In this document: piece by piece, positions 4,581 to 25,884 of the stretch
How positions within the stretch are numbered: the first letter of the stretch is position 1
Layout of the letters: the number at the start of each line of letters is the position of its first letter
Source: Minisyncoccota bacterium
Lineage (GTDB): Bacteria; Patescibacteriota; Minisyncoccia; UBA6257; 2-01-FULL-56-20
Direction of reading: 5' to 3'
DNA length: 64,000 nucleotides
NCBI GenBank assembly: GCA_031291905.1
Contig: JARLIC010000137.1
Coordinates: forward strand, 51,762-115,761
Made by a program: the position numbers and the translations under genes
Notes under the pieces: model-generated
What the model saw: the letters and a program-made list of their open reading frames with translations, nothing else
The model's database searches: none
What the model was told of the DNA's origin: nothing

Positions 4581-5087
4581 CTAAGACCTGGACAATCCGC
4601 CATAACTCTTGAGAACGGCCGTGTACGTCATTACGCCGTCGATGATCATCTTGGCGAAAAAATTCGTGACCAAGAAGTAGCCCTGCCAGTATTGATCGGT
4701 GGCACTGATTCCAAGTTGCGCGTAGGCGATGACCGAGCCGTCGAACAGGGCCGTCATGAGCGTATACGGGACCACGCCGACGTTGAAAACGCCCTCGATC
4801 CGAACATCCGTCTGAATGGCCACTGGCAGCGAGGCCGCGAACACCAGGTCCATCGAACTGTCGTAGTGGACCGACGATGTTACGTCCGACGTCTGAACGT
4901 CCGTGCGGGCCTCCCATGATCGGATAGGGACGAACGTCGGAGCAAGCGGCTTCGTCCTGTCGCGACCGGGCGGCTTGGTGAGGAACACGAACTTGGTCCC
5001 CGCACCCGCATCGTTAGTGTAGCCTAAATAGAGATAGCCTTGGGTTCCCGCACGTTTCCCGTCGTCGCCGTCATCAAATCCCGCCAT
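4581..5087 (-). CDS. hypothetical tail-associated protein
   Basis: Last ORF of the distal-tail gene run. Confidence 0.4.
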   Translation of the reverse strand: MAGFDDGDDGKRAGTQGYLYLGYTNDAGAGTKFVFLTKPPGRDRTKPLAPTFVPIRSWEARTDVQTSDVTSSVHYDSSMDLVFAASLPVAIQTDVRIEGVFNVGVVPYTLMTALFDGSVIAYAQLGISATDQYWQGYFLVTNFFAKMIIDGVMTYTAVLKSYGGLSRS

Positions 5088-5448
5088 CGTCGCTCCATTT
5101 GCCCAGCGGGCATTCCATGTCGCGGCCCCACGGCTTCACGGCCATCGAACATCTGCACTCTCGGCACTTGTTCCGCTTGGCGTCGAAGGACTCGCACGTC
5201 TCGCATATCGCGTGGCGGCGGTCGAATTCGGCCTGATCGACGGTCGCGCAGCCGGACTTGATGAACGTCCCGACCGCCACGGCAAGACTTCCGACTTGCT
5301 CAAGCAGCGGCGGATATTCGGGCTCGACTCCGTTGTGCCGGTCGATCACGCGTCGCCATTTCTCCGGGCTCTTGGCGTGGTTATTGCACAAAACCGCGTA
5401 CGAATCGCACTCGCCCGTGATCGGGCAGCCGGAGCACTTCGGGTCCAT
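5074..5448 (-). CDS. Cys-rich (11 Cys) small protein
   Basis: Start MDPKCSGC at 5448 overlaps the stop of the upstream gene (ATGA). Motifs CSGCPITGEC and CETCES..KCRECRC are present. Confidence 0.45.
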   Translation of the reverse strand: MDPKCSGCPITGECDSYAVLCNNHAKSPEKWRRVIDRHNGVEPEYPPLLEQVGSLAVAVGTFIKSGCATVDQAEFDRRHAICETCESFDAKRNKCRECRCSMAVKPWGRDMECPLGKWSDDGGI

Positions 5449-10900: not shown

Positions 10901-12454
10901 TCAGAAATACCGCTCGATGAAATACTCGAATTCGATGATGCGTTTGTAGAGGGTCACGTTTCCGCCGGGGCCGGTCGCCTTGAACTTCGGGAACTGGCGT
11001 TCGGTGCGGCGCAGATAGAGAAGGACGCCGTCGGAGAACACCAACGGGGCGTCCTGGAGCGAGGCGGCCACGGCGTCGGCCATCTGGCGGGCGAGCAATT
11101 TCTCGGTCGCGACGACTTCGATCAGGAAGACGCCGTTGATGATCGACCCATGTGCACCGCGTGAACTCCTGGATTCGTAGTCCTCGAACTCCCTCGGCTC
11201 GCTGAACACGACGTACGGCGGGTCGGTCTTGGGCAACTCGACGTCGGAGACGAACTTCTCGCCCGTCGGTGCCCCCTTGACGTCGCCGAACGCGGCGACG
11301 ATCGCCGGCTTGGTCCTCAGCCATGCGATACACGCGGCGATCAGATCCCACGGCTTGTCGTACCGCTGGTCGTCTGGCTGGAGGATCGACGTCTTGACCT
11401 GCGGAGCGGGCCACATCAGTGGAACGCGTCGCTTGGGGACGACCACGAACAGCGGATGCGGCCGGGGGTCGTGTCGCGGCGGCGGGACGACGAACTGAAG
11501 GAACTGGCTCGTGAAGACCCACGGCGCAGCCTTGCGGCCGCGAAGGCGGGGGACGACGATCGGATCGAAGACCGGGATGCTGCGGTAGGCGATCGGCGGT
11601 CGGGTCGCGACGACGATCGGAACGCGGAGAGCTTTCGATCCCTTGAGGCGGGATGGAACGACGGTCGGCTGGGTCGACCACTGGGGGGCCAGCTCGAATG
11701 CGTCGCCGGGCAGGATCGTGACGATCCCCTTGAGCCGGGGGCCTCGCGCTGGGCGGGCGACCACGATCGGGCTTGCCCCGCGAGGGCGGATCTGTCGCGT
11801 CGCGTCGAACGAAGAGTGCAGGACGATCGGCGATCGAAATCGGCGCCTTGAGGCCGCCGGAGTGGTTACTATCTGGGGCGAGGGAGGCGGGGCTTCGGCG
11901 ATGCCTCCGGGCAGGATCGTGACGATCCCCTTGAGCCGAGGGCCTCGCGTTGGACGGCGGACGACGACCGGAGGATGGGGGCTGGCCCCCTGATTAATCC
12001 CCCACTTGTACGCCGGATGGACGATGATCGCGGGGGCCGCACGACGCAACCGAGGCGGATCAACGACGACGATCTGGTTCGGCAGGCCGTCCTTCGGCGG
12101 CTGCGTGTACCGCGTGCGGACGATGATCGCACGGGGAAGCGGCTTGGGCCTGCGAGCGACGTTGACGCCGAGCCACGTCGGCTGAAGGGGCTTGGGAGAA
12201 CCACCTCCACCGCTTGGAGGAGGGGGCGTGGGGACGCCCGTGACGACCCGAGTCGACGTGATTTGGATCAGGTCGAACGGCGACGGGCGGCGCCGCGTGA
12301 CGTAGTTGACGCCGAACCAAGTCGGCTGGAGCGGCTTCGGCGAACCACCCGCACCGATCGGCGGCGGCGGGACGACCACCGTGGACGCCGGCGGACTGGG
12401 CGTGACGACCAGGATGCGGCGGCGTCGACTTCCGTACTGGTAGCGGATTCCCAT
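10901..12454 (-). CDS. Pro/Arg-rich repetitive N-terminal region fused to a tail-completion-like C-terminal domain
   Basis: GC3 is strongly biased in this frame. Internal repeats: GGSPKPLQPTW occurs twice and RGPRLKGIVTILPG twice. The C-terminal 150 aa are globular (VVFSEPREFEDYE...KRIIEFEYFIERYF). Confidence 0.5.
   Translation of the reverse strand: MGIRYQYGSRRRRILVVTPSPPASTVVVPPPPIGAGGSPKPLQPTWFGVNYVTRRRPSPFDLIQITSTRVVTGVPTPPPPSGGGGSPKPLQPTWLGVNVARRPKPLPRAIIVRTRYTQPPKDGLPNQIVVVDPPRLRRAAPAIIVHPAYKWGINQGASPHPPVVVRRPTRGPRLKGIVTILPGGIAEAPPPSPQIVTTPAASRRRFRSPIVLHSSFDATRQIRPRGASPIVVARPARGPRLKGIVTILPGDAFELAPQWSTQPTVVPSRLKGSKALRVPIVVATRPPIAYRSIPVFDPIVVPRLRGRKAAPWVFTSQFLQFVVPPPRHDPRPHPLFVVVPKRRVPLMWPAPQVKTSILQPDDQRYDKPWDLIAACIAWLRTKPAIVAAFGDVKGAPTGEKFVSDVELPKTDPPYVVFSEPREFEDYESRSSRGAHGSIINGVFLIEVVATEKLLARQMADAVAASLQDAPLVFSDGVLLYLRRTERQFPKFKATGPGGNVTLYKRIIEFEYFIERYF
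11708..11949 (-). repeat. near-identical 41-bp direct repeat (11708-11748 and 11909-11949) inside the CDS
   Basis: gggcaggatcgtgacgatccccttgagccg(g/a)gggcctcgcg occurs twice. Confidence 0.7.
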
Positions 12455-12561: not shown

Positions 12562-13020
12562 TCACTCCTCGTAGCGGACGCCGCCGATGCAGTTGACCTG
12601 CGCCGTGGTCGTCACCTTGAGGCCGAGGATCGTGCCGCCGGGGACCATGTCTTCCTGGCCCGGGGGCAACGGGTAGATGACCAGGCCGCCGAAGACCGGG
12701 ATCGGATAGACGTGCAGCACGTCGCCCGAGGTGGGAGCCCCGGTCTGCGTGTTCTTGCTGACGGCCTGGAGCACCTCGCCGACGCTCGAAGGGTCGTTGA
12801 CCTTCTTGGGGGGGACGCTAGTGTTGGTGAACGAGCCGCCGGCCTGACGCTCGACGACCAGCGTGCCCGGCGCGTTGGCACTGTTGGTGCCGTCGAAGCC
12901 GACCTCGTAGCCGAGGATGCGGAGCCTCTGATTGGGGGGAGCGACGAGCTGCATCACCGTCAGGGTATTGGCGTTGATGTTCGCCGTGGTCCAGGTCGCG
13001 TAGCCGATCAAACCAGCCAT
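12562..13020 (-). CDS. hypothetical neck/tail structural protein
   Basis: ORF 12562..13086 with internal start MAGLIGYATW at 13020. Confidence 0.45.
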   Translation of the reverse strand: MAGLIGYATWTTANINANTLTVMQLVAPPNQRLRILGYEVGFDGTNSANAPGTLVVERQAGGSFTNTSVPPKKVNDPSSVGEVLQAVSKNTQTGAPTSGDVLHVYPIPVFGGLVIYPLPPGQEDMVPGGTILGLKVTTTAQVNCIGGVRYEE

Positions 13021-13165
13021 GATGTGGAACCTCTTGATATGCGGAGGGATGGGAAAAGGCGGGGAACGAACGGGCCGAGGCTCCACGTTGGAACTGGCCG
13101 CCCGGCACGCCCGTCGAAGACGGGGTGTTTTGGAAGTGGGAAGGGGAAGTGGAGGCGAAGCCGCC

Positions 13166-13912
13166 TCAGTCGGGATGGTAGTACTGAAAAGGGATGGGCA
13201 CGACGACGGGCCGGCGTGGGGGGAGGACGATGGCTCCGCTGGCGTTGACCAGGAGGTCGTCCATGAACACGCGGCTCGACGTGTTGTTCGCCTGTGCGGC
13301 GAACCCGTAGTAGCCGCCCGACGTGATGTCCGAGGCGGTGAGCGACGAGATCACGTTCACGGAAGTCGGCTGAAACGCACCGCTCGAATCCATCGTGTAG
13401 CCGTCGCTCATCCGAGTGAGAGTGACGTTGAAGATGTTCAGGCCGTACGTGACGACGCGGATCGCGTACCAACTGCCCTGGATGAGCGAACTGTCAGAGT
13501 TGGTGACGGACGCCAGGGTTGTGACCGTGCCGTTGACGATCTTGTCGAACTGGAGGTGAGCCCCCGTGAACGCGTTGTTGTACGCCAGATTCACCCAGTA
13601 GGCCGACGTGGTCGAGTTGTCCATCGTCGCGGCCGAGCACCGCATCGTCGGCCCGACCTTGTACAAGCCGACCGTCGCCGAGGAAGTGACGTAGACCATG
13701 CCCGTCAGGTCGAACGTGGCGCCGGCGCCGGGGTCGGCGATGCCGCTGGTCGCGTAATATTTGGTTCCCGCCGTGCCACTCGACAGCACCAAGCTGTTCG
13801 GCGACGAAAAGAATTGAGCGGCCGACGTGACCATCCCCGCGTCGTTGTTCCAGTTCGCCGGGATCGCGGGCGGCGTGACCGAGTCCCAATTTCCAACCAG
13901 AGAAAACGCCAT
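13166..13912 (-). CDS. Ser/Thr-rich structural protein
   Basis: 248 aa, very S/T/N-rich and beta-rich in composition. Confidence 0.5.
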   Translation of the reverse strand: MAFSLVGNWDSVTPPAIPANWNNDAGMVTSAAQFFSSPNSLVLSSGTAGTKYYATSGIADPGAGATFDLTGMVYVTSSATVGLYKVGPTMRCSAATMDNSTTSAYWVNLAYNNAFTGAHLQFDKIVNGTVTTLASVTNSDSSLIQGSWYAIRVVTYGLNIFNVTLTRMSDGYTMDSSGAFQPTSVNVISSLTASDITSGGYYGFAAQANNTSSRVFMDDLLVNASGAIVLPPRRPVVVPIPFQYYHPD

Positions 13913-13915
13913 GGA

Positions 13916-14257
13916 TCAAGTCTTCTCCTGACACGAAGCCCACCATTGGGCGGCGGGGACGGCCGGGGCGGTGTAGCCGACGACCTGATAGATCCGCGTA
14001 CGTCCCGCGCCGTCGACCCAAACAAGCACGTCTTTTGAACTCAGATCCGCGTCGTCAAGGAAGTAGATTTTCGTCGGATTGAACTCGATAGTCCGATTCA
14101 TTCCAGTTTCATCGCTGGTGTCGACGATCGTCCGGGCCTCTCCGGGCTGAACGAAGCAACGGAGCGATTGCGAGGACGTGGACGACGCGACTCTCGCCCC
14201 GCCGTCCTGATCGGCACCGAACGCATTGTGTTGCACCGTGACCGTATGAGGAGCCAT
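13916..14257 (-). CDS. hypothetical head-tail joining protein
   Basis: ORF 13916..14278 with Met MAPHTVTV at 14257. Small protein between connector-like and neck genes. Confidence 0.4.
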   Translation of the reverse strand: MAPHTVTVQHNAFGADQDGGARVASSTSSQSLRCFVQPGEARTIVDTSDETGMNRTIEFNPTKIYFLDDADLSSKDVLVWVDGAGRTRIYQVVGYTAPAVPAAQWWASCQEKT

Positions 14258-14281
14258 GCGGGCGGAAGGTCGTCTCATGGG

Positions 14282-15529
14282 TTACGCTCGATGGGAAACG
14301 TAGAGGGCGAGATCCTGACGGACGGGGTCCGGGATCGCCAGGTTCATAAGGTCGTTGATCTCGTACGAGTAATAGCCCGTCGACTCTTTCTTGACCGCGT
14401 AATCGAGGTTGATCCGCGAATACACGGTCTTGACGAGGTCGATCGCCGCCGTCTGGATGACCGTCGGGATCGTGGTGAACCCCGCGTCGTAGATCACGCG
14501 GACCACGTCGTTGGAGTGGTCGATGCTGGAGTCGAGACCCTGCATCCAGCCCGGCCCCCACATCGAGCCGAAGCCGTCGCTGAAGCCCACGCCGGGCGTG
14601 ACCAGCAGTCCGGTTCGTCGGTCCAGCCGCGACGTCGACACGTCCTCGCTGAACACCTGGAGCTGGACGCCGTCCGACAAGGCTCCCTGGGAGGTTCCGT
14701 CGCAATAAATTTCCGACACCGGCCAGCGTCCGTAGCCCATGGGGTCGACTGTGGCTTTCCACCCCGAGACCGCGTTGACGGCTGCGGCGAGGTCGTTGAT
14801 CGTCGCGAGGCCGGCGAACAGGATCGGGGTCGACGACGCGATCCCATAGGACGCACCGGCGAGGTTGAGACCCGTGTACGAAACGCTGAATGGGTTGGGG
14901 AGAACCACGTCCACGGTGCTGAAGTCGACGTAGGCCACCTGATAGGCCGAAGGGTCGGCGGTGATCGTGATCGCCGTTCGCGGGCTCCGCGACACGCGGA
15001 CGGCCCGATGCACGGGCATCTCCGAAAGCATCACTTCGCCGTCAAGCGTCGGGCTCAGGTATTCGGTGTACTCGCGTCGTGAAAACGTCCGGTTGCAGTA
15101 GCGGCGGATCTTCTCGGTGACGCCCTGGAGGATCAGCGGCAGCATCGCCACCTTGGCGGGATCGGCCGCGATGTCGGGGTTGAGAGCGAGGGCCGAAGCG
15201 GCCGAAACCAGCACGTCGTATTGCGGCTGATTGCCTGGTGCGGCGACGACTTCCAGAAGCCCGAAGGCGAGTTCGCCGTTGTTCGACGCGAGCCGGACGT
15301 GGACGGCATAGCCGCCGGGGGCGAGTGAAGCCGTTTGAGCGGCCGTCAGCGACAGCAGGATGTTCGGAGGACCGGCCGCCGCGAACGTGGGCGTGAACGT
15401 GATCAACGCCGCGTCGGTCAGCCCAGTGGAGACCGTCGCCGCCAGGATCGCGGTGGACGCGAGCGGGCACGCCGTAACGACGATCGGCGTCTTCGCCGCC
15501 TGACCTTGGACCACCTGCCACGTAAACAT
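14282..15529 (-). CDS. Ig-like N-domain fused to gp6-like head-tail connector domain
   Basis: Middle segment LILQGVTEKIRRYCNRTF resembles the gp6-like connector signature. N-terminal ~100 aa are Ala/Thr-rich and beta-rich. Confidence 0.45.
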   Translation of the reverse strand: MFTWQVVQGQAAKTPIVVTACPLASTAILAATVSTGLTDAALITFTPTFAAAGPPNILLSLTAAQTASLAPGGYAVHVRLASNNGELAFGLLEVVAAPGNQPQYDVLVSAASALALNPDIAADPAKVAMLPLILQGVTEKIRRYCNRTFSRREYTEYLSPTLDGEVMLSEMPVHRAVRVSRSPRTAITITADPSAYQVAYVDFSTVDVVLPNPFSVSYTGLNLAGASYGIASSTPILFAGLATINDLAAAVNAVSGWKATVDPMGYGRWPVSEIYCDGTSQGALSDGVQLQVFSEDVSTSRLDRRTGLLVTPGVGFSDGFGSMWGPGWMQGLDSSIDHSNDVVRVIYDAGFTTIPTVIQTAAIDLVKTVYSRINLDYAVKKESTGYYSYEINDLMNLAIPDPVRQDLALYVSHRA

Positions 15530-15701
15530 GCGTAATCCTCAATCCAGGCGGTCGAAGTCAACTGCAATTACACGGGGCGGTGGGGCTCGTCGGCGTCGGA
15601 ATATACGCGGCGAACGGCAGCGAACACGGAATGGGATCGACGACCCCGCCGGCGCCCATGCCGAGGTTCGACAGAAAGTAGATGATCATGACGAAGCCTC
15701 C

Positions 15702-17057
15702 TCAGACGAGGACGTATGCGACCTCGCCGGACACCGAGACGGCGCCAGAGAGGTTGATGTTCAAGGCCGCACTACTCGCCGTCCTGAAACGGCCGATCGG
15801 AGAGTATGAGCCGCCCGCCGAAGCGTACTGAATCATGTAGCGAAGACCCGAGATGTCGGTCGTGGCCGACTGCCACTTGACGTTGACGGTTCCGTTCGCG
15901 GTCGCCGACCATTGGAGGACGACGATCTGCTTGCCGGCCGACGACGCGACGACCTGCGTGTTGCCCGATGAGCTGGCGGTGAAGGTCGCGTATAGCGGCG
16001 CCGTCGGGACCGCCCCGCTATAGAGCGTGCTGACGTCGTCGGCGTTGGCGATCTTGCCGATCAGGTTCGTCCCGGCCGCGACGCCTACCGGGTTCGTGAT
16101 CGTGCCGACCGTCGTGACGTTGGTCACGGTGCCGACCGTGGTCACGGTCGCCAACGTCTGGGCGGAAGCAATGCTGACCGTCGCTAGCAGGTTCGCGGCG
16201 TTGGATTGAGCCACCGTCACCGGGTTAGTGATCCCCGTGACCGCCGTGACGGTCGAGACCGTGGCGAGCGTCTGGGCGGCGGCCAGAGAGACGGTCGCAT
16301 TCAGGTTGGAAGCGGTCGGCTGAGCCACGGTGACCGGGTTCGTGACGCTGGTGACGGCCCCGACGGTCCCCACGTTCGTGACGGTCGCTAGGGTCTGGGC
16401 CGCCGCGATGGACACGGTCGCGTTGAGGTTGGACGCCGTGGGCTGCGAGACCGTCACGGCGTTGGTGATCGTGCCGACCGTGCCGACGTTGGTGACCGTA
16501 GCAAGGGTTTGCGCCGAAGCGATCGAGACCGTGGCGTTGAGATTGGCTGCGGTGGGCTGTGCGACAGTAACGGGATTGGTGATCCCCGTCACGGCGGTCA
16601 CGGTCGACACCGTGCCGACGGTCGTCACTGTCCCGAGCGTCTGCCCTGATGCGATGTTCGCCGTGCAAAGCAGACTGGAGGCCGTCGGCTGCACGACCGT
16701 CACCGGATTGGTGATCGACGTGATCGAGGAGATCGCCCCGACGCTGACGGTCCCGCTGATCGCGGCGAGCACCGTCAGTTGGCCGCTGCTGTTGACGACC
16801 GCCGTGTTGCCCCCCTGCTTGATCGACATGACCCAGGGGTTGGTGTTCGGCGTATCGCCGGGGTTGACGACCCACGTCCCATCCTGCACCACGGGCATGC
16901 CGTTTCCGACCTGGACTGGCTGGGCGACAGCCGCATTGTCGGTGACGCTCGTCATGAAGACCATGGCGGCGGGCGCGTAAGCCTCGCCCGCCGCCGTCTT
17001 GTAGGTGACGAGCTTGGCGCCGCCTGCCCCGGCATTGAGTTCAATGTTCGTGGACAA
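15702..17057 (-). CDS. fibrous protein with 7-8 tandem ~37-aa repeats (NPVTVAQPTASNLNATVSIAAAQTLATVTNVGTVG)
   Basis: Repeats are visible in the translation and as ~111-bp DNA tandem repeats. Confidence 0.7.
   Translation of the reverse strand: MSTNIELNAGAGGAKLVTYKTAAGEAYAPAAMVFMTSVTDNAAVAQPVQVGNGMPVVQDGTWVVNPGDTPNTNPWVMSIKQGGNTAVVNSSGQLTVLAAISGTVSVGAISSITSITNPVTVVQPTASSLLCTANIASGQTLGTVTTVGTVSTVTAVTGITNPVTVAQPTAANLNATVSIASAQTLATVTNVGTVGTITNAVTVSQPTASNLNATVSIAAAQTLATVTNVGTVGAVTSVTNPVTVAQPTASNLNATVSLAAAQTLATVSTVTAVTGITNPVTVAQSNAANLLATVSIASAQTLATVTTVGTVTNVTTVGTITNPVGVAAGTNLIGKIANADDVSTLYSGAVPTAPLYATFTASSSGNTQVVASSAGKQIVVLQWSATANGTVNVKWQSATTDISGLRYMIQYASAGGSYSPIGRFRTASSAALNINLSGAVSVSGEVAYVLV
16030..16800 (-). 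repeat. ~111-bp tandem DNA repeats encoding the 37-aa protein repeats
   Basis: Recurring gtgaccg..gtgacggtcg..accgtggc..gtctgggc.. blocks. Confidence 0.7.
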
Positions 17058-17060
17058 CGC

Positions 17061-18656
17061 TCAGCACTCCGAATTGAAAATATAATTGTTCGTCACATTG
17101 GTGGTGAGCGAGGCCACGAACTTGGGGACGACCCCTCCCCGCAGTGCGGTCGCCAACGCGGACGGGTCGCCGGTCGCACCGCCGAAGGTGTCGATGTAGC
17201 AGACGCCATTCGCGGCGGCGGGTCTCGCCGTGACGCGGACCGTCACCCAGCCGGCGGCGGACGGCGTGAACGTCGTGAGCGACAGTTGGTTCCAGGTCCC
17301 CGTGTTGGCGGGCGCCGTGGTTGAGGCCGCCGAAACGCCGATGGCCGGCTCGGCGAGCACCTCGAAGACGGGAGGCGTCGCCGTGCCGTAGTTCGCGTCA
17401 GCGTTGGTGTAGATCGTCAGCGTGGTTGCGGACGCCGCGACCGGAACGCGCCACTCTTGCGTTCCGGGTCCGGGGCCGAGCTTCTCGGCCGCCGATCCCG
17501 CCTGGACTGTTCCGGTCTGGACCGTCGCCGTATCCTGTCGGCCGAAGCAGCCGACTTGCATCAAGAGCGATCCGCTGCCGGCCGGGACCATGCGGCCGCT
17601 GATGTCGACCGCAGGAGGGGTCCCCCCGTTGCCGAATCCAAGCTGCGGACTGCCGTCGAGCGGCTCCATGAACGGCCGAGGCGAAAGGCCAACCAGACGC
17701 TCGCCGCCGAAGTTCAGTCGCGGGTTGGCCGCGATCCGGGAGTGGGCTCCGATGGACACCGCCGTCCGGGGAGTGGTGACGTAGAAATCGTTGTAATCCT
17801 CGTCGATCACCGACGTGTTGTTGGCTGAAACGCTGCCGTTGAAGAAATAGCAGCCGTAGATCCCTATCTTCGTGGTCAAGGTGACGGCCGAACTGGTGTA
17901 GGCGGAAGCGCCCCCGCCGAAGACGAAACTGCAATTCTGGATCGTCTGGCCGGTTGCGAGGAATGAGCCGGAGCCCGTCTGCGTAAGGCGGGCGCCGGAG
18001 CCGCCGCCATAGAACAGGCTGTTTTGGATGAGGTTGCCCAGGCTATATTCAGCGGTGTGGAGCGGCGGCCGAATTTCCACGCCAATCCCGCCGGTAGGCG
18101 AGACGACCGTGTTTTGTGTGAACGTCAAGTTCATCGCCGCGCCAGCCGTGCCGTCGAACCAGCAGGTGACCGTTTTGAGTTGATGGGGGATGAGAATGCA
18201 ATTCGCAACCGTCCAGTTGGACCACACCCCCGTGACATACAGGGCGCACGCCGCCTGAGACGTGTTCGATCCTGTGATCTGGAAACCTTGGATCGTGACG
18301 TAACTCTTTCCGGTCGCGTAGAGCGTCGCCGTGGCCGTGAGCGCCGTCGTGTCGTTCGACCAGCCGAGCCACTCCACCTGGCCGGTGGCCGGCGTGGCGT
18401 AACCGCCGGCGAGAAACCCTGTCCCGTCGCAGTCGCCGATGATCGAGAGCGGCCCGGCGAGCGTCGGCGACAGGCTGAGCGTCACGATCTCGCGATACGG
18501 AGTACCCGGCTCTACGTAGACGACGTCGCCCGTGCCCGACAGGGTGATTTTGGGAGTAGGCCCGATCGCGGCGCCAATGGTTTGCCATGGGTTCGTTGCG
18601 GAACCTGTGCCTGTACTGTCGCTGCCCCTGGAACTGCTGACGTAGTACAAAGCCAT
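17061..18656 (-). CDS. right-handed beta-helix (pectate-lyase-like) fibre/spike protein
   Basis: N-terminus SSRGSDSTGTGSATNPWQTIGAAIG is the hallmark start of beta-helix spike proteins. The sequence is Gly/Thr/Asn-rich. Real start is probably MALYYV at 18656. Confidence 0.6.
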   Translation of the reverse strand: MALYYVSSSRGSDSTGTGSATNPWQTIGAAIGPTPKITLSGTGDVVYVEPGTPYREIVTLSLSPTLAGPLSIIGDCDGTGFLAGGYATPATGQVEWLGWSNDTTALTATATLYATGKSYVTIQGFQITGSNTSQAACALYVTGVWSNWTVANCILIPHQLKTVTCWFDGTAGAAMNLTFTQNTVVSPTGGIGVEIRPPLHTAEYSLGNLIQNSLFYGGGSGARLTQTGSGSFLATGQTIQNCSFVFGGGASAYTSSAVTLTTKIGIYGCYFFNGSVSANNTSVIDEDYNDFYVTTPRTAVSIGAHSRIAANPRLNFGGERLVGLSPRPFMEPLDGSPQLGFGNGGTPPAVDISGRMVPAGSGSLLMQVGCFGRQDTATVQTGTVQAGSAAEKLGPGPGTQEWRVPVAASATTLTIYTNADANYGTATPPVFEVLAEPAIGVSAASTTAPANTGTWNQLSLTTFTPSAAGWVTVRVTARPAAANGVCYIDTFGGATGDPSALATALRGGVVPKFVASLTTNVTNNYIFNSEC

Positions 18657-18907
18657 CAGGCAACCCCTTTCGCTAGAGCCGCCATGCGAGGGGCGACTTC
18701 GGAGAGAAGTGCGGCGAGGGCTTCCGAAGGTAGGTTTTCCAGGAGATCCGAAACGAGAACGGCCGAATTCCCGGTGCAATCAACGAGCATTTCGCCGGTA
18801 ACAGAGTCGCAGAAGCCGATTTCGATCTTGTAGTCGTTTTTCAAAACGATCGACTTTGGACCCGGTATCGACGAAAGCACGTATGGATTAAGATCCATGC
18901 TGATCAA
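18656..18907 (-). CDS. small hypothetical protein
   Basis: 83-aa ORF. Its stop overlaps the next gene's start. Confidence 0.4.
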   Translation of the reverse strand: MISMDLNPYVLSSIPGPKSIVLKNDYKIEIGFCDSVTGEMLVDCTGNSAVLVSDLLENLPSEALAALLSEVAPRMAALAKGVA

Positions 18908-18970
18908 CCTCGCGATATGATTCGCCGAACGGCGGGGTGGGGCGGGCCTTGCTGAATTGCAAGAGATTTG

Positions 18971-18989
18971 GTAGGATCACCGATCCTAC
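18971..18989. promoter_or_regulatory. perfect palindrome GTAGGATC-acc-GATCCTAC in divergent intergenic region
   Basis: Read directly between divergent gene starts at 18907 and 19020. Confidence 0.35.
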
Positions 18990-19019
18990 TTCTAAACTGC
19001 AAGGCTTGGAGCAAGACAA

Positions 19020-20669
19020 ATGGCTTGGGATTCAGCGTACTATTCGTCGGTCAACGAAGATCTCTTGCGATTCATCCCGCCGGATAGTAACCGCGTGCTT
19101 GAGGTGGGATGCGGAACCGGGGCGTTGGCCTCGCGGTTCAAGCGGATCAATCCGAAGTGCGTGTACTGGGGAGTGGAGGCTGACCAAGATGCGGGCGAAG
19201 CAGCTCACAATAATCCTGATCTCGATATCATGTTTTCAGAAACAATCGAGCACTTCCTAGGTCGATATCCCACGGAGTGCGAGAATCCCGATTGCGTCGT
19301 ATTCGGCGACTGCCTCGAACACCTTGTCGATCCACACGCCGTTCTCAAGAAATGCGTTGAATGGCTTAAGCCCAACGGCTCCGTCGTCGCCTGCGTTCCC
19401 AATGTTCAGCATTGGAGCGTGATTCAAACACTGATCCAGGGCCAATGGCCTCGAATGGGATCAGGATTGTTTGATGCGACGCATCTCAGTTGGTTCACCA
19501 AGCAAAGCCTGATTGAGATGTTCGAGGCGGCGGGGCTAACTATCGCGAAGATCGTCCCTCGCAATATCGCGCCAGGCGGCGAGCGTCTCATCGACGCCGT
19601 GAAGGAGTTTGGGCTTACCGAGGACGTCGGACGGTTTAGGGAGGGATGCCAGGCGTATCAATGGCTGATCCACGCCGTCAAGGGCGACGTCCCAAGCCGT
19701 AAAGTTCTCATCCGTGGCTTCACCGCCGAAGGATGCTGCGCCCGACCGCGTCTCACGGAGCCGGGCGGAATGATCAATACGATTCCCGGCTTCCGCTACT
19801 CCGAGGTCACGACACAGGTCGAGCCGGGGGAATCCGTGGTCGTTGTACGTCAGCGATTCAACATCACCGAAGCCGCCATCCGCGAACACCTGAAGCACGG
19901 GCAGTTGATTATCGGCGAATGGGACGACGACCCGTGGTACGAAGGGTTCAACGGCAAGCTCAAGACGCCATCCGTCGAATGGGCTCTCAAGGCTTGCCAC
20001 GCGATCCAGGTCAGCACCGAAGCCATCGCCGAACTCGTGCGACCGATCAACCCGAACGTCGCAGTGTTCCCGAATCAGATCGCAGCCGTGGGACCAGAAC
20101 GAGAGTACGTCGAGTCCGACGTAATCCGGGTCTATTTGGGAGGCCAGAGGAATAAAGGCGACTGGGACAAAGTGATCCCCTTCGTCAACGGCATGTCCGC
20201 CGCGAGCCCGGATGTTTTTCACTTCGTCGTCGTGCACGATAGGGATCTCTACCAGGCCCTTGAAACGCATAGGAAGACATTTTACGCCTTCCAGCCTTAC
20301 GAAAAGTATCGGGCCATACTGAGGACGTGCGATGTGACGATTGCTTCTCTAGCCAACACGCGGTTCAATCGGTGCAAGAGCGATATAACCGTAATCGAAT
20401 GCGCGGTGGAAGGCGTGGCCGTGATTCCGTGCAATCCAGAGTCCAGCATGTACACTGAGCTAAGGTCTTGGAAATACAACAAGAAACCAAGCGAGTTCGC
20501 TGAATCCCTTCGCAGCCAGGGACGAAGAGATCGCAGTTGGTCCATCAGCAACCGCATGCTCTGCGACCACTACAAGAAGCGAGCCGCATGGTACGACGGC
20601 TTGCTCGACGACAAGGCTGAATTGGATCGCCAGTTGTTCGAGCGGCTGCCGGAACTTCGTCCTACTTGA
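19020..20669 (+). CDS. class I SAM-dependent methyltransferase fused to GT-B-like glycosyltransferase domain
   Basis: MTase motif I VLEVGCGTGALA and post-I, II and III motifs are present. The C-terminal half has an ..ECAVEGVAVI.. GT-B-like region. GC is lower than in neighbours and the strand is opposite. Confidence 0.65.
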   Translation: MAWDSAYYSSVNEDLLRFIPPDSNRVLEVGCGTGALASRFKRINPKCVYWGVEADQDAGEAAHNNPDLDIMFSETIEHFLGRYPTECENPDCVVFGDCLEHLVDPHAVLKKCVEWLKPNGSVVACVPNVQHWSVIQTLIQGQWPRMGSGLFDATHLSWFTKQSLIEMFEAAGLTIAKIVPRNIAPGGERLIDAVKEFGLTEDVGRFREGCQAYQWLIHAVKGDVPSRKVLIRGFTAEGCCARPRLTEPGGMINTIPGFRYSEVTTQVEPGESVVVVRQRFNITEAAIREHLKHGQLIIGEWDDDPWYEGFNGKLKTPSVEWALKACHAIQVSTEAIAELVRPINPNVAVFPNQIAAVGPEREYVESDVIRVYLGGQRNKGDWDKVIPFVNGMSAASPDVFHFVVVHDRDLYQALETHRKTFYAFQPYEKYRAILRTCDVTIASLANTRFNRCKSDITVIECAVEGVAVIPCNPESSMYTELRSWKYNKKPSEFAESLRSQGRRDRSWSISNRMLCDHYKKRAAWYDGLLDDKAELDRQLFERLPELRPT

Positions 20670-20955
20670 TGATCGCCAGGACGTTCTCTTCTTTCACCAG
20701 AAGCAGCTTCTTGCCGTCGACCTTGAATTCCTCGCCCGCGTACTTCGTGAACAAGACCGTGCGGCCGGGCGAGAAACCGACTTCGATCCGCTCGCCGTTC
20801 GATGCGATCCGACCCGGACCGACCGCCAAAACTGTGCCCTTGTTCGGCCTGTCCTTGGCGACGTCCGGGAGGACGATGCCGCCCTGCGAAACGTCTTCGG
20901 TCGCGTCACGTTCGATGATGCACCAGTCAAGCGTCGGAACGAGAGTCATCAACAA
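20662..20955 (-). CDS. groES: co-chaperonin GroES (Cpn10)
   Basis: GGIVLPDVAKDRPNKGTVLAVGPGR..NGERI...KYAG.E.K.DGK..L..EENVLAII aligns along the full length with the GroES pattern. Confidence 0.85.
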   Translation of the reverse strand: MLMTLVPTLDWCIIERDATEDVSQGGIVLPDVAKDRPNKGTVLAVGPGRIASNGERIEVGFSPGRTVLFTKYAGEEFKVDGKKLLLVKEENVLAIIK

Positions 20956-20965
20956 AACTCCAGGG

Positions 20966-21196
20966 GCCTATGAAATGAGCGATCAGCGATGCGGGACGTG
21001 CGAGCACTTTGGACATGAACCGCATGCCAAAGCAGAGGGATCCCCAGGATACTGCTATCGAATCCAGGAGTATTATTGCCCAGGCCCAGAATTCAAAGAC
21101 CTGGCGTGCGTGTCGGCCGACGTCGGCGGCATCTTTTATTGCCGCCCCGAATTCGGCTGCATTCTCTGGGAAAAGAAGGAGAAGAATGATGAGTGA
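20966..21196 (+). CDS. small Cys-rich protein, paralog A (MSDQRCGTCEH...FGCILWEKK)
   Basis: ATG at 20966. Shares conserved N- and C-termini with two downstream paralogs. Confidence 0.55.
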   Translation, partial: AYEMSDQRCGTCEHFGHEPHAKAEGSPGYCYRIQEYYCPGPEFKDLACVSADVGGIFYCRPEFGCILWEKKEKNDE

Positions 21197-21410
21197 CCAG
21201 CGATGCGGGACGTGTGAGCACTATTGTAGAAGTGATCTACAGGCTGAAGAGAACACGTACGGCACGTGTGATCGAATAGGAACAGAAGGTGGCCCTTGGC
21301 CAAGCGAAGACAATCTGGCGTGCGCTGTCGACAGGCAGGACGGGGCGGATCTTCGCTGCATGCCAACCTTCGGCTGCGTACTCTGGGAATCAAAGGAGTC
21401 AGCGAAATGA
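21186..21410 (+). CDS. small Cys-rich protein, paralog B
   Basis: Start ATGATGAGTGA overlaps paralog A's stop. Sequence MMSDQRCGTCEHY...FGCVLWESK. Confidence 0.55.
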   Translation: MMSDQRCGTCEHYCRSDLQAEENTYGTCDRIGTEGGPWPSEDNLACAVDRQDGADLRCMPTFGCVLWESKESAK

Positions 21411-21691
21411 GTGACCAGCGATGCGGGGCGTGCAATCGATTCGGCGGTCTTCTCAGAAAGGATTACATGAGAGAAGACTATCCAGAGCCTTCTGAGAGAT
21501 TCAGCTTTGGGTACTGCCGAGCGATCAAACTCAATCGAATTCCCAATAGCAATGAACCCAGCGGCGAGCCGGATTGCCTCGCGTTCACAACCGACGTAGA
21601 AGACTATTCAGCAGCATTGATGGTTCGCCCCAATTTCGGCTGCGTCCTCTGGGAGCCTAAACGAACACCGGATCTTCCGGCTGCGGATTGA
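21407..21691 (+). CDS. small Cys-rich protein, paralog C
   Basis: ATGA overlap with paralog B. Sequence MSDQRCGACNRF...FGCVLWEPK. Confidence 0.55.
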   Translation: MSDQRCGACNRFGGLLRKDYMREDYPEPSERFSFGYCRAIKLNRIPNSNEPSGEPDCLAFTTDVEDYSAALMVRPNFGCVLWEPKRTPDLPAAD

Positions 21692-22622
21692 GTTGGCGGC
21701 GTAAATCGTCGTACAAAACCTCTTCCCGCATACTCCGCGTCAGCACGTCCTTCACCGCGTGAACGTATCGCGAGTCCATGCCGTCGAGCCCGGCGGCGTG
21801 GCCGCGAAGGTGGGCGTTGGGCATGATCTCCGCCCATAAGCCGAATTGATCGGCCCAGTTCGGCAGATCGTCCATCATGCCGTCGAGCCACTTCAGGAAC
21901 GACTTCTGCTGCTCGGGCTTCTCGACGAGGTTCTGGCGGTAGGATTCGTTCTTGCCGTGGTGTCGCCAGTAACCGATGCGGACGGGGTCGCAGACGACCT
22001 TGCCCTTGCGGCCCATCGCGGCGAGGATCGTTCGTTCGGTGAACAGGTCGCAGTGCTCGGGCACTTCCGCCATCGCGTCGCGGAAGTCCTGGCCGCACCG
22101 GAAGGCGACGGCGGGCGACAACGCCCAGCTTGTGACGTACGCGAACGGCGTCAGCATGTCGCCGTCGATGACCATCGGCCTGTTCCTGAGAAGGTTCATC
22201 GGCACCAGAGGGCCGACACCGGTGAACCACATCGCAAGGTCTTCGTCTTCGGAGATAGCGAGGATCGCGGTCCACGTCTGTGCATCCGCGAACGTGTCGA
22301 AAGCGATGGTGATCCGCTCGCTGTACCGCTCATGGACGATGTCGTCGTCCTGGCACCACGCGAAGTATTCGGCCCCGTCGTCCATCGCCATCTCGGCGGC
22401 TTCACGCCAGTTCTCCCAGAGGCACGTCGCGTCGGTGCGTCGATGGGAGACGAGCGGGTTGTCTTTGTATTGGTGCATCAACTCGGCGGTCGCGTCCGTC
22501 ATGCCCTGATCGGCGACGAGTATCCGGCATGGCGAGATCTGCCCCAAGAGGCATTCGATCGTCTTGCCGAGGAATTCCGTGCGATCCAGGTGCGGGACGC
22601 CGACCGTGAGCTTGGGATGCAT
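21657..22622 (-). CDS. family-2 (GT-A) glycosyltransferase
   Basis: N-terminus LTVGVPHLDRTEFLGKTIECLLGQ...ILVADQG fits the GT2 start pattern. A DxD-like WCQDDD follows. Confidence 0.6.
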   Translation of the reverse strand: MHPKLTVGVPHLDRTEFLGKTIECLLGQISPCRILVADQGMTDATAELMHQYKDNPLVSHRRTDATCLWENWREAAEMAMDDGAEYFAWCQDDDIVHERYSERITIAFDTFADAQTWTAILAISEDEDLAMWFTGVGPLVPMNLLRNRPMVIDGDMLTPFAYVTSWALSPAVAFRCGQDFRDAMAEVPEHCDLFTERTILAAMGRKGKVVCDPVRIGYWRHHGKNESYRQNLVEKPEQQKSFLKWLDGMMDDLPNWADQFGLWAEIMPNAHLRGHAAGLDGMDSRYVHAVKDVLTRSMREEVLYDDLRRQLNPQPEDPVFV

Positions 22623-22709
22623 GGAGGATTCCGAAGAATGAGGAGCCGCCGCCCCGATCGTTTACAAGGCGAAGGGGGCGACGGCGATTAACACATCAGC
22701 AATCGCTGA

Positions 22710-23190: not shown

Positions 23191-24690
23191 TTAGGAGCCG
23201 AGCGAAAGCTGGACGAAGGGGGACGTCTTGTAGATCACGCCCGAGGGGGACGTCGACTGACGCGGCCCCATCCACAAGGACTTGCCGTCGTGGCGCTGCT
23301 TCCAGCGATACGCGATCTGGTCGGTGTCGAAGAGGAACTGTTCGCTGATCGCGACTTCGATGCCCGAGCGGTTCGCCACGCCGTACTGCGTGGGGTCGAT
23401 GAGCATGATGTCGCCGGTGCCCGAGACCTCAAGCTTTTCGGTCGTGAAGCGGATCGGCAGGCCGAGCAGGGTGCCCGCAGCCTGATACCGCATGCCGGCC
23501 GACTTGGTCCCGGCGATACTGGAAAGCATCGCGGCCTGGGTGATCTGTGAGTTGGGCTGGAACGCAAGGGTGGTGCCGTCGCGGACGTTAAGAAGTTGAC
23601 TGTAGGTCGCCTGGTGGGCGATGAACATCGCGTTCTTAAGACATGACATATCGAACAAGGCCAACATCGCCTGGAGGTCGGCGAGCTGGATCTTGTTCTG
23701 CAACAGGCGGGTCGCCGTGAGCAACGCCGGGCTCTGGCGGATTCCGGTCGGCTTGCCGGCTCCGTCGCCGTTCAGGAACACGAAGTCCGTCTTGTACGCC
23801 ATCGCCTTCAAAAAGAGGCTCTGAAGGACGGTGGCAGCCGAGATGTAGTTGTCGGCGACGAGGTCGCGGGAGATCTGCGTGTAAGCAGTCTGGTCGACGA
23901 TTTTGTACGTGATCTCGCGAAGCTTCGCGTCGGAAGCCTGGCGTTGGGTCGACTCGCCCTTGTAGAAGACCTGGATGCCGGCGGTCGCCGACGTCTGGCC
24001 GATGCCGGGGGCGAAGTACTGGTCCAGGGCGGGCCAGTGGACTTCGTTGGTCGCCCCGACCGGGATGTTGAAGGCGTACGGCTCGATCAGCGACTCTTCC
24101 ATCGCGATCTCGTTGTAGCCTCCGAGAATCTCCGGCTTCACGAAGTAGCCATAGGCGGAGCCGCCGGAAAGCGATTCACTGCCGGCGCGAGCGACGGCGG
24201 GCGACGCGGTCGACATGGAGCCGTCCCATGTCCGCTCCAGCTTGAAGTGCTCGACGAGCCGCTGGTCGGCGTGGTCGCGTTCGCCCTGAGACGCCGACGG
24301 GCGGGTTCGATAGAGCAGCCCGAGGATTTCGCCAAGGCCGCGACCGATCGCCTTGCCGTCCACGCCGCGATCGGCGGGGGATTCGGTGTGCTCGATCGTC
24401 CCGTTGAACGGAACGCCGTCGTCATCGAACTCCATGCCCTTGGACGGAGGGCCTTTACTGGGCTTATTGCCGCCGCTCTGGAGCGAACGCTTGAGGTCTT
24501 CAAGCTCCTTCGTGATCCCGGCGGTGGCGTCACTGAGTTGGCTGCGGACCATCGCGCTGACGTGGGCCTGAGCGTCGGATTCCTCGGCGAATCCGTACTC
24601 GATGTACCCTCGTGCGACCTTCTCGTCCGCGATATCGATCACATCGCCGGCCTTGTGCTCGTCGATGTTCTTCTTGAGCTTCACAAACAT
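23191..24690 (-). CDS. HK97-fold capsid protein paralog with N-terminal coiled-coil (delta-like) segment
   Basis: DLVADNYISAATVLQSLFLKAMAYKTDFVFLNGDGAGKPTGI matches the HK97 major-capsid signature. Start MFVKLKK at 24690. Confidence 0.7.
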   Translation of the reverse strand: MFVKLKKNIDEHKAGDVIDIADEKVARGYIEYGFAEESDAQAHVSAMVRSQLSDATAGITKELEDLKRSLQSGGNKPSKGPPSKGMEFDDDGVPFNGTIEHTESPADRGVDGKAIGRGLGEILGLLYRTRPSASQGERDHADQRLVEHFKLERTWDGSMSTASPAVARAGSESLSGGSAYGYFVKPEILGGYNEIAMEESLIEPYAFNIPVGATNEVHWPALDQYFAPGIGQTSATAGIQVFYKGESTQRQASDAKLREITYKIVDQTAYTQISRDLVADNYISAATVLQSLFLKAMAYKTDFVFLNGDGAGKPTGIRQSPALLTATRLLQNKIQLADLQAMLALFDMSCLKNAMFIAHQATYSQLLNVRDGTTLAFQPNSQITQAAMLSSIAGTKSAGMRYQAAGTLLGLPIRFTTEKLEVSGTGDIMLIDPTQYGVANRSGIEVAISEQFLFDTDQIAYRWKQRHDGKSLWMGPRQSTSPSGVIYKTSPFVQLSLGS

Positions 24691-24843
24691 GGGGTTCTCC
24701 CGATGTTGTCGTGGGTGTTGACAACGCTCGGCGCGGCGAATCTCCAGTCCGCCGGGGAGTCCGCCGCATCTCGAAGACGGGTCGGGCCGGGAACCTGATT
24801 GCTCGTGCGCTGACACGAAACAAAAACGTGTATTAAGATGTCG

Positions 24844-25884
24844 TTACTTGAGAACGACGAAGGGGCCGGCGGTCTGCGAGCCGTCGGCGATCGTGACGGG
24901 CTGCCTCCAGAGCGGCGAGCCGTCGACCCGGAACTTGAACCGAAAGACCGTACTGTCGGTGTCGAACATGAACTCGTCGGCCGACCGCGTCTCGACGAAC
25001 TCGCCGAGTGACCCACAGGTCACGCTCATGTCGGGGTCGCCGTTATTGTCCACGGTGCGGGCCACGAGGGCGTACTGGCTCCAGTCGCCGACGATCAAAT
25101 CGCCTTGCGTCCCGAGTGCGGGGCACTGTTCGACGGGCAGGAGCGGGCGGCCCTTGAGCAACGGGTACGGGTTGCCGTACATCCCCATCGGCATGTACAG
25201 ATTCGCGGGCCAGCCGGTCGTCGTGGCCACGGCGTCGAGCTTCAGCAGCGTGTCGTCGTTGCACATCCACGCCGCGTTGCGACGGCAGTACGGCCAGAGC
25301 CGGCTCCACATCGTGTCGACGTCGGCCTGTGCGATGTTGTTGGAGCCGTTCCGCGTGACCTGGATGCTGGAGTTGGCCGCGATCACGCCGAGCGGGTGAG
25401 TGATCCCCTTGCCGTTGATCATCGACTCGACGACGGCGTACTGGATTTCCTGGCTTGCGGCGTAGTCCAACATTCGTTCGACGAGCGGGGCGTCGGCGAG
25501 CAGGTCGTTGCTGAACGGCGTGGAAAAGACCATGGCTCGCTTGGGGACGAACTTGATCATCGCCGCCGCCGGCTGGCTGGCGTCCGGCGTGGCCGACTTG
25601 TCGTCGGTCGTTCCCTGCCATCGAACCTTGATGCCGCCGAAGCGAGAACCGGCGACGCGGCTGGTTTCGTCCAGTGCGGGCCACTCGGCTTCGTGCTTGT
25701 TGGTCGTCAGGAAGAGGCATCGCGCCAATGGGCCGTCGATCGCACGAGCCTTGTCCCACACCGACTGGAACAGCTCGGTGTCGAGCAGGAAGCCGCCGTT
25801 GGCCCCGCCGCCGTACGTATTCAGTGCGCGGGTGACGTCCGCAAAGTAACGGACGATCGGATTTCCGCTCTGTGCGGTCGTCAT
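24844..25884 (-). CDS. HK97-fold capsid protein paralog (no delta domain)
   Basis: NDLLADAPLVERMLDYAASQEIQYAVVESMINGKGITHPLGVI carries the same HK97 signature in a second, different sequence. Confidence 0.7.
   Translation of the reverse strand: MTTAQSGNPIVRYFADVTRALNTYGGGANGGFLLDTELFQSVWDKARAIDGPLARCLFLTTNKHEAEWPALDETSRVAGSRFGGIKVRWQGTTDDKSATPDASQPAAAMIKFVPKRAMVFSTPFSNDLLADAPLVERMLDYAASQEIQYAVVESMINGKGITHPLGVIAANSSIQVTRNGSNNIAQADVDTMWSRLWPYCRRNAAWMCNDDTLLKLDAVATTTGWPANLYMPMGMYGNPYPLLKGRPLLPVEQCPALGTQGDLIVGDWSQYALVARTVDNNGDPDMSVTCGSLGEFVETRSADEFMFDTDSTVFRFKFRVDGSPLWRQPVTIADGSQTAGPFVVLK

Follow-up and report, generated by a model that had tools for sequence, protein, structure and literature searches.

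The window analysed here is a stretch of 64,000 nucleotides (nt) from contig JARLIC010000137.1 (positions 51,762 to 115,761; GenBank assembly GCA_031291905.1), and the gene under study lies on its minus strand at 15702..17057 (stop codon 15702-15704) and encodes a protein of 451 amino acids (aa). The product is composed of a conserved N-terminal region of ~110 aa, a shaft rich in Thr, Val and Ala that consists of five repeats and a stub, and an eight-stranded C-terminal jelly-roll of ~110 aa. It belongs to a widespread but so far uncharacterised fibre family that follows the ordinary plan of anchor, repeat shaft and knob and is new as a sequence family. The reading preferred here, with a probability of roughly 0.55, is that the protein is a structural fibre (adhesin) of a large siphophage-like virus and that the neck is its most likely mount. 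The two parts differ in strength: the comparisons make a virion fibre very probable, and mounting at the neck, taken by itself, falls a little short of even odds.

Architecture of the fibre protein

All three parts of a generic trimeric phage fibre are present, with conserved ends, a variable middle and a confidently modelled C-terminal jelly-roll. The open reading frame (ORF) is a genuine gene. It starts with TTG, 3 nt past the stop of the upstream gene and with GGAG 9 nt upstream, and the public gene calls give the same 451-aa product both in NCBI (as a hypothetical protein of the metagenome-assembled genome, MAG) and in Logan. The identical protein occurs on 4 contigs, and 95 homologues with conserved ends were found. 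Shadow ORFs of 216 aa on each strand overlap the repeat region (16225-16980); they stem from GC-rich repetitive coding sequence and are not genes.

The conserved N-terminal region, aa 1-114 (MSTNIELNAGAGGAKL..., 16716..17057, minus strand), carries the motif M-A-D-N-V-x-L-x-x-G-x-G-G...R-T, common to the family, and is proposed to be the virion-proximal anchor. An AlphaFold2 model of the monomer, built from 47 family sequences, gives this region (the first 110 residues) a predicted local distance difference test score (pLDDT) of 60-70, and the repeats (aa 100-340) a pLDDT of 43-70 with no strands assigned by DSSP. The only confident part is the C-terminal domain (aa 345-450, 15708..16025, minus strand; pLDDT 91-97), an eight-stranded beta-sandwich.

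No family in Pfam (E ≤ 0.1) or NCBIfam matched the protein, and in PHROGs only phrog_21945, of unknown function, was recovered (E 0.0028); no annotated family recurs across 47 family members. Nothing significant was found by tblastn of the whole protein or of its N-terminal and C-terminal parts against 50,697 INPHARED phage records, nor did PDB sequence searches started from the protein, from a distant member or from the family profile find anything, and a search for literature on planctomycete phage fibres gave nothing relevant. The name fibre protein, given by an earlier sequence-only reading, fits the architecture and the tailspike-like beta-helix neighbour described below, evidence that is indirect as to a role on the virion.

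The repeat array

With unit boundaries anchored on [IV]TN[PA]V, five full units start at aa 115, 159, 197, 238 and 276 and measure 44, 38, 41, 38 and 44 aa (132, 114, 123, 114 and 132 nt), followed by a 13-aa stub at aa 320. On the minus strand they occupy 16584..16715 (repeat 1, aa 115-158), 16470..16583 (repeat 2, aa 159-196), 16347..16469 (repeat 3, aa 197-237), 16233..16346 (repeat 4, aa 238-275) and 16101..16232 (repeat 5, aa 276-319), and the truncated sixth unit with the junction leading into the C-terminal domain (aa 320-332, ITNPVGVAAGTNL) lies at 16062..16100. Each unit is made up of a core of ~34 aa, ITNPVTVAQPTA.NLNATVSIA.AQTLATV, and a variable number of three-residue T-V-x steps. 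The highest same-residue count at offsets of 30-50 is 80, compared with 35.1 ± 2.7 and a maximum of 47 in 2000 shuffles (~16 standard deviations).

Tandem protein repeats are therefore present as the sequence-only reading had stated, and the consensus that it quoted, which is the copy in repeat 3, agrees with the one found here. Its description of 7-8 near-identical copies of 37 aa (111 bp) does not hold: the array has five full units and a stub, of the lengths given above, and the cores are only 62-88% identical in protein and 63-76% in DNA. Exact DNA matches in register extend to 11 nt at most, no exact direct repeat exceeds 17 nt, and of the 114-nt unit only 2.0 copies (77%), repeat 2 among them, are picked up by Tandem Repeats Finder. 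Codon differences between copies are synonymous in 160 cases and non-synonymous in 83. Given these identities and the excess of synonymous differences, the repeats are by this evidence old copies kept by protein-level selection and not a fresh, near-identical array.

Shaft length varies in the family. Proteins P0008 (396 aa) and P0010 (379 aa) match P0005 (475 aa) at 395 of 396 and 378 of 379 residues once a single in-frame deletion in each (79 and 96 residues, with ends inside repeat motifs) is set aside. DNA-level breakpoints are known for the 288-nt deletion only, which shows a 9-nt breakpoint ambiguity inside an 11-nt common stretch (CTCTGCACCGC) between copies that are 70% identical over ±30 nt; three independent assemblies carry the long allele without a single base difference. 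Because microhomology of 9-11 nt is too short for k-mer collapse, both deletions look like true microhomology-mediated events. The window phage has one allele only, identical on the 4 contigs, and a slippage-prone array of the contingency type was rejected for its gene, near-identical DNA copies being absent (63-76% identity, exact run ≤11 nt). The proneness to expansion and contraction claimed by the sequence-only reading is thus borne out among relatives, which carry 0-5 units of the window's type and in-frame indels, and does not extend to slippage in the window gene.

A family with an exchangeable shaft

The 95 homologues have the N-terminal motif MADNV.L..G..GAT.RT and the C-terminal domain in common and differ in the middle. 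A hidden Markov model of the window's repeat unit (type A) finds 0-5 copies per protein, the window protein having the most, and a second repeat type, TQSGxW, is present 0-6 times per protein and absent from the window protein. Among the related loci (L001 to L046), L034 and L045 encode the N-terminal motif and C-terminal domain without a shaft, quite different shafts are found in L040, L041, L046, L028 and L032, and relatives in IMG/VR place 38-aa VSATDLDIRDL... repeats, coiled-coil-like segments or extra globular domains before the same knob. The family treats the shaft as an exchangeable insert, ranging from none to several hundred residues, with several repeat types and in-frame gain or loss of blocks. 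The distant members at 8705-10330 of L040 and 5230-6807 of L041 have a very regular repeat of ~38 aa, VSATDLDIRDLSSATDSVAVEGGN.TDVKVTLDGETVG, ahead of the same knob, and glycosyltransferase genes lie nearby.

The ends can also be substituted. A different N-terminal domain is found in L017, L018, P0115 and P0138, and P0076 and P0095 combine the repeat or the junction with C-terminal domains of other kinds. Even P0095 keeps the junction TVTTVGTITN..AGTNLIGK; it resembles the window protein in its linker (TVSTVTTVGTITN...AGSNLIGKV) and in the layout of repeats followed by a C-terminal domain, but its C-terminal domain is DUF6385 (PF19912) and has no match to the window protein. Assignment of the window's C-terminal domain to DUF6385 was rejected, since no Pfam match was obtained at E ≤ 0.1 and hhalign against P0095 aligned only the junction that precedes the domain. 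No literature on DUF6385 was found.

The C-terminal domain is itself widespread. An exhaustive phmmer search with aa 320-451 recovered 1,988 representative metagenomic clusters (50% identity) at E ≤ 1e-3, of which 639 reach E ≤ 1e-10, and in nearly all of the 150 matches listed it closes the C-terminus of a protein 121-1063 aa long. Stand-alone proteins of 106-135 aa made of this domain also exist. It has no match in Pfam, NCBIfam, annotated PHROG models or PDB sequences, and a profile search of genome contigs with the C-terminal alignment gave one weak locus, in Paracoccaceae. No second family member was found within the window; the 152-aa protein at 12562-13020, considered as a paralogue of the knob, was rejected as it gave no BLASTP alignment.

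Structural comparison of the domain with the PDB using Foldseek placed first the trimeric cement protein of phage KHP40 (7dou chain 4; E 3.1e-4, target template modelling (TM) score 0.51, 118 columns, 13% identity). Other weak matches were the coat protein of satellite tobacco mosaic virus, PirA, Ena spore-appendage subunits, the HFTV1 turret, a viral protrusion domain, sugar-binding modules, and the Sf6 needle knob (3rwn) and OX40L (E 3e-3 to 1e-2, TM 0.3-0.4). Against BFVD, the domain matched the C-terminus of a 1010-aa protein (E 4e-12, 30% identity) and stand-alone phage proteins of 106-118 aa (TM 0.86), all of them uncharacterised.

A cassette shared by unrelated phages

The window is a large tailed-phage genome, the minus-strand order of which begins with the small and large terminase, the portal and two HK97-fold capsid paralogues. 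A 152-aa gene, a GT2 glycosyltransferase, a GroES-like gene and, on the opposite strand, a methyltransferase-glycosyltransferase (MT-GT) fusion come next, and then a gene for an 80-aa protein, those for the beta-helix protein and the fibre, and a 43-aa ORF. These are followed by a head-tail adaptor of 415 aa, by genes of 120, 248 (possibly LamG-like) and 152 aa and by a 517-aa protein with a gp17-type domain, and the order ends with tail tube, chaperone, tape measure and tip proteins.

The upstream partner of the fibre (17061..18656, minus strand) is 531 aa in length and is predicted by AlphaFold2 to form a right-handed beta-helix (aa 1-305, pLDDT 70-94), a low-confidence linker and a beta-sandwich like those of carbohydrate-binding modules (CBMs; aa 400-495), before ending in the peptide ...NNYIFNSEC. 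Foldseek matches include GH136 lacto-N-biosidase, tail fibres of Agrobacterium phage 7-7-1, Klebsiella phage tailspikes, pectin methylesterases and CBM61/36. On the other side, the head-tail adaptor (14282..15529, minus strand) matches PHROG 442 (E 2.3e-13) and has extra domains; it is syntenic in L004, L006, L007, L009-L012 and L014. The placement of the fibre gene between a beta-helix protein and the connector, as the sequence-only reading had it, was confirmed on both sides.

The 80-aa gene (18656..18898, minus strand; called in L008) is the third member of a cassette: together with the beta-helix and fibre genes it is found again, at 33-55% identity, in three phage types. The first comprises the window-type phages L007, L009-L012 and L014, and the second is the Paludisphaera type (L001, L003 and L015), in which HK97-like prophages of Paludisphaera borealis and relatives have the cassette between head-closure and gp17-type genes. 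In the third, L017, it follows the tape measure and tip genes. In L001, L003 and L017, homologues of the 80-aa protein (36-55% identity) are encoded next to the beta-helix gene and the fibre gene, and the beta-helix partner adjoins the fibre gene in L001, L003, L007, L009-L012, L014 and L017. The partner is replaced by a LamG protein in L006 and by an 805-aa beta-helix-rich protein in L004, and no partner gene was matched in L016. The head and neck genes of the three types do not cross-match, and the comparisons show a cassette that is co-inherited and found in unrelated phage chassis. Further afield, the family gene lies between a fusion of major capsid protein (MCP) and protease and the tail terminator in L028, and upstream of the terminase in L032. 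Because position varies among lineages in this way, gene position alone says little about the mounting site.

In L005, a LamG_3-domain protein occupies the beta-helix position beside the fibre gene, as in L006, and its sequence is unlike that of the window's 248-aa protein. The partners differ in body (beta-helix, LamG_3 or 805-aa beta-helix-rich) yet end in similar C-terminal peptides (NNYIFNSEC, INIYQIEA, NTYIFQVEG, NYIFQVEG, PWIYGDQIQE and PWIFGDQIES; window 17061-17090, L001 9970-9997, L003, L007, L017, L005 and L004), which may represent a common docking tail. The relatives P0101 and P0102 lack the peptide.

A conserved peptide and the mounting site

The clue to the neck comes from the 43-aa ORF directly downstream of the fibre gene (15558..15689, minus strand; MIIYFLSNLGMGAGG...), which is called as a gene in L008 and is a candidate docking peptide. 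Its N-terminal motif, [FW]L[SQ]NLGMG[AV]GG, is kept in L004-L007, L009-L012 and L014 and the remainder diverges. The motif follows every fibre gene of the MADNV type examined in window-type loci, Paludisphaera-type loci and L005, and a six-frame regular-expression scan of the window and L001-L046 found it only at these positions; loci whose fibre has another N-terminal domain (L017 and L018) lack it. In the window-type phages the peptide is a free ORF of 43-56 aa next to the adaptor gene. The Paludisphaera-type loci have no separate ORF, and the gp17-family protein encoded directly after the fibre starts with the peptide motif instead (MSFLYWLSNLGMGAGGTITPTGPPTLR in L001 and MNLLLWAYQLGMGVGG... 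in L003), as an N-terminal extension of 27-28 aa ahead of a Pfam gp17 domain that starts at residue 28/29. The hexameric ring that joins tail to head (the terminator) is exemplified by SPP1 gp17 and lambda gpU (PMC11099176).

Since one lineage has the peptide as a free ORF next to the adaptor gene and another has it joined to a neck ring protein, docking of the MADNV-type N-terminus at the neck via this peptide is suggested, as a hint of the Rosetta-stone kind. The N-terminus would then be an exchangeable anchor, for which an alternative domain is used where the cassette sits elsewhere or lacks the peptide (L017 and L018). We infer that the fibre would be a homotrimer with the N-terminal region as its virion-proximal anchor, and that the jelly-roll would form a distal knob that nucleates trimerisation and binds a ligand on the host surface, likely a glycan. 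Together with the neighbouring beta-helix enzyme, the fibre may make up an accessory device for adsorption and depolymerisation. The sequence-only reading had proposed a head or neck fibre from gene position, an argument weakened by L017 and L032; the neck half of the proposal gains from the peptide fusion in L001 and L003.

Several points weigh against this assignment. The fold of the shaft and its oligomeric state are deduced, the AlphaFold2 monomer having no confident fold for shaft or N-terminal region, and searches of INPHARED and the PDB gave no cultured relative, virion proteome or structure for the family. Fusion of the peptide to the THJP (tail-to-head joining protein) is seen in a single prophage lineage (L001, L003/L015) and may be a single event, and adjacency could reflect operon history and not contact. 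With the cassette placed behind the tail-tip genes in L017 and upstream of the terminase in L032, gene position does not fix the mount. The best PDB fold for the knob is a capsid cement protein, weak as that match is (TM 0.51, 13% identity), and the two ends of the protein are kept in phages that differ in heads and tails, an unusual trait for a chassis-specific anchor.

The alternative that fares best puts the protein at the tail tip as a distal tail fibre or receptor-binding protein, with a gene that happens to occupy a permissive insertion site at the boundary of the head and tail modules. In L017 the fibre, 80-aa and beta-helix genes stand after the tape measure and tail-tip genes, the classical position for tail fibres, and no other obvious large receptor-binding protein is found in the distal module of the window (tip proteins of 332, 143 and 497 aa) or of L001 (316, 118, 144 and 128 aa). 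The partner also resembles tailspikes and the tail fibres of phage 7-7-1. However, the L017 fibre has a different N-terminal domain and no LSNLGMG peptide and may be a re-targeted version, and in loci of the MADNV type the linked peptide goes with neck proteins. A tail-tip location for the window protein is considered rather unlikely.

A head fibre or capsid decoration, in which the C-terminal jelly-roll binds the capsid lattice as a cement protein does and the repeats and N-terminus point outward, would account for the trimeric KHP40 cement protein as top fold match, for the scores of the HFTV1 turret and the viral protrusion domain, for the position of the gene after the MCP genes in window-type phages and L028, and for the stand-alone versions of the domain. 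The fold matches are weak (E 3e-4, TM 0.5, 13% identity), however, and the jelly-roll is a generic fold. Among phages with capsid proteins that do not cross-match and differ in domain make-up (HK97-like of 449 aa, MCP-protease fusion of 716 aa, two MCP paralogues), the domain retains 40-59% identity, which is hard to square with binding to a specific lattice, and its invariably C-terminal position fits a distal or trimerising knob. Capsid decoration thus appears quite improbable.

Glycosyltransferase genes and the nature of the shaft

Phage glycosyltransferase genes are embedded in the structural module of the window. The MT-GT fusion (19020..20669, plus strand) matches Pfam Methyltransf_23 and PHROG 7162, and the GT2 glycosyltransferase (21657..22622, minus strand) matches Pfam PF00535. 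The former is conserved in L007, L009, L010, L012, L014 and L016, and also in L006, where it is alone at the locus edge; the latter is conserved in L007, L009, L010, L014 and L016. In the window-type relatives the two hold their place between capsid genes and cassette, and glycosyltransferase genes (PHROG 7162 or GT2) are found near the distant family members in L040 and L041. The fibre family is present without GT2 or MT-GT in the Paludisphaera-type loci (L001 and L003), L017, L005 and L028. The sequence-only reading proposed that the neighbouring enzymes glycosylate the repeats, for which synteny is the one support; O-linked glycans may sit on the Thr-rich shaft or, instead, on the capsid protein. 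N-x-S/T sequons are not enriched in the fibre protein (7 compared with 8.5 ± 2.5), and the asparagine of the motif NAT is kept in only 42% of 229 repeat units of the family.

These genes bear on a further explanation, that the Thr/Ser-rich repeats are a flexible, O-glycosylated, mucin-like linker modified by GT2 and MT-GT and not a folded shaft. The repeat region is 24% Thr and 7% Ser, AlphaFold2 assigns it no secondary structure, glycosyltransferase genes keep their synteny among window-type phages and occur close to family members in L040 and L041, and virion glycosylation by phage glycosyltransferases is reported for mycobacteriophages. On the other hand, the hydrophobic positions V6 (82%), L14 (82%) and V18 (72%) are conserved over the 229 repeat units, which would fit packed beta structure better than a disordered linker and, together with the synonymous excess, points to a folded repeat. 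The same repeats also occur in lineages without these glycosyltransferases (L001, L003 and L017), and sequons are neither enriched nor conserved. A mucin-like linker is accordingly regarded as very unlikely.

That the array is an assembly artefact or the ORF not a real gene has a negligible chance: metagenome-derived repeats generally carry this risk and nothing specific was found here, whereas the Logan assembly L008 (run SRR23300986) matches window positions 12702-20057 with 0 mismatches in 7356 nt (it may share reads with the window MAG) and has the same gene calls over that region, the protein is on 4 contigs and has 95 homologues with conserved ends, and copies with 63-76% DNA identity and an exact repeat of at most 17 nt are too diverged for an assembler to collapse, so that the collapse raised as a concern by the sequence-only reading is very unlikely.

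Comparison with known neck and knob proteins

Accessory adhesins mounted on the neck have precedents in the lactococcal neck passage structure (NPS; PMC6669499) and the neck fibres of the Anabaena myophage A-1(L) (PMC10966104). NPS proteins of the lactococcal 936 group are neck-associated accessory adhesion proteins that look non-essential. Their N-terminal part is conserved and their distal parts vary, with CBMs or pectin-lyase-like beta-helices among them; a lactococcal neck CBM was shown to bind host cells (PMC6669499). The window resembles this system in that the fibre and a beta-helix/CBM protein are encoded among neck genes. It differs in that enzyme/CBM and fibre are separate, the neck location is deduced, and no sequence similarity was detected in 50,697 phage records; the conserved NPS N-terminal region of ~180 aa was not matched by tblastn of the N-terminal 114 aa against INPHARED, where the best E value of 0.9 is at chance level.

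The neck fibres of A-1(L) (gp82-gp81-gp80) and the T4 fibritin whiskers are trimeric and hook an N-terminal domain to the neck ring, and fibres of the A-1(L) type are encoded by a small operon and carry a distal module of carbohydrate-binding type (PMC10966104). The A-1(L) fibres are, however, bead-chains of many trimers of separate proteins, whereas the window fibre is a single chain with beta-type repeats, and T4 fibritin is an alpha-helical coiled coil; the window fibre has no detectable homology to either. The Sf6 needle knob (3rwn) and the trimeric heads of the TNF/C1q kind share with it a C-terminal jelly-roll of ~110 aa after a repetitive shaft, but the matches to Sf6 and OX40L are weak, as given above, and lack sequence similarity. 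The KHP40 cement protein differs in being a stand-alone, capsid-bound protein of 124 aa, 13% identical, with neither shaft nor N-terminal region.

Planctomycetota phages are almost unstudied and their mode of adsorption is a gap. A large unannotated family is now defined, with ~2,000 clusters (50% identity) carrying the knob and no Pfam, NCBIfam or functionally annotated PHROG model, and it gains a testable architecture for which the prophage of Paludisphaera borealis PX4, at about 2.501-2.522 Mb of CP019082, is a cultivable entry point. In-frame shaft indels and a peptide that is free or fused offer a simple system for the re-lengthening and re-mounting of fibres in phage evolution. The current understanding of phage fibres is not overturned, and interest lies mainly in the modularity and mobility of an ordinary virion part. 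A bolder version, which we hold to be unlikely and distinctly speculative, is that the 80-aa protein, the beta-helix/CBM (or LamG) protein, the fibre and the LSNLGMG peptide would form a plug-and-play module that moves between chassis with its own docking peptide, free or ring-fused, and could be bolted to any siphophage neck, with the Thr-rich shaft tuned in length by microhomology-mediated in-frame indels and, in one lineage, glycosylated by MT-GT and GT2.

Other genes of the window

The GT2 gene, a GroES-like co-chaperonin gene (20662-20955) and the MT-GT gene form an island of lower GC content (18900-22700; 0.57-0.58 compared with 0.64-0.66 in the flanks) in the structural operon. The GT2/MT-GT arrangement recurs in L007, L009, L010 and L012 with an unverified 87-aa gene at the GroES-like position. 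The two adjacent HK97-fold MCP paralogues (24844-25884 and 23191-24816, minus strand; 346 and 541 aa) both match Pfam Phage_capsid, and the pair is also present in L014 and L016.

The 517-aa protein (10901..12454, minus strand) has a Pro/Arg-rich N-terminus and a C-terminal gp17/THJP domain (Pfam PF11367, aa 375-485). This domain makes up the last third only, and the first ~370 aa are internally repetitive (GGGGSPKPLQPTW.GVN twice); homologues of 509-541 aa are found in L007 and L009. The 248-aa protein among the neck genes (13166-13912, minus strand) is homologous to proteins of L004 and L006, its likeness to LamG being unconfirmed by Pfam. A small Cys-rich, zinc-finger-like protein (window 5074-5559, minus strand; L001 16675-17061; L017 8986-9339) is 35-50% identical across the three cassette-bearing phage types, has a weak DUF6171 match in L003 and is encoded directly before the fibre gene in L017.

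The bin is labelled 'Candidatus Pacebacteria' in NCBI. The window is a phage genome with 55-66% GC, and its nearest cellular relatives are prophage genes of Paludisphaera borealis (P0016 and P0101). The bin label is probably wrong; the virus is probably a large siphophage-like virus of a planctomycete, with a likely host in the Isosphaeraceae.

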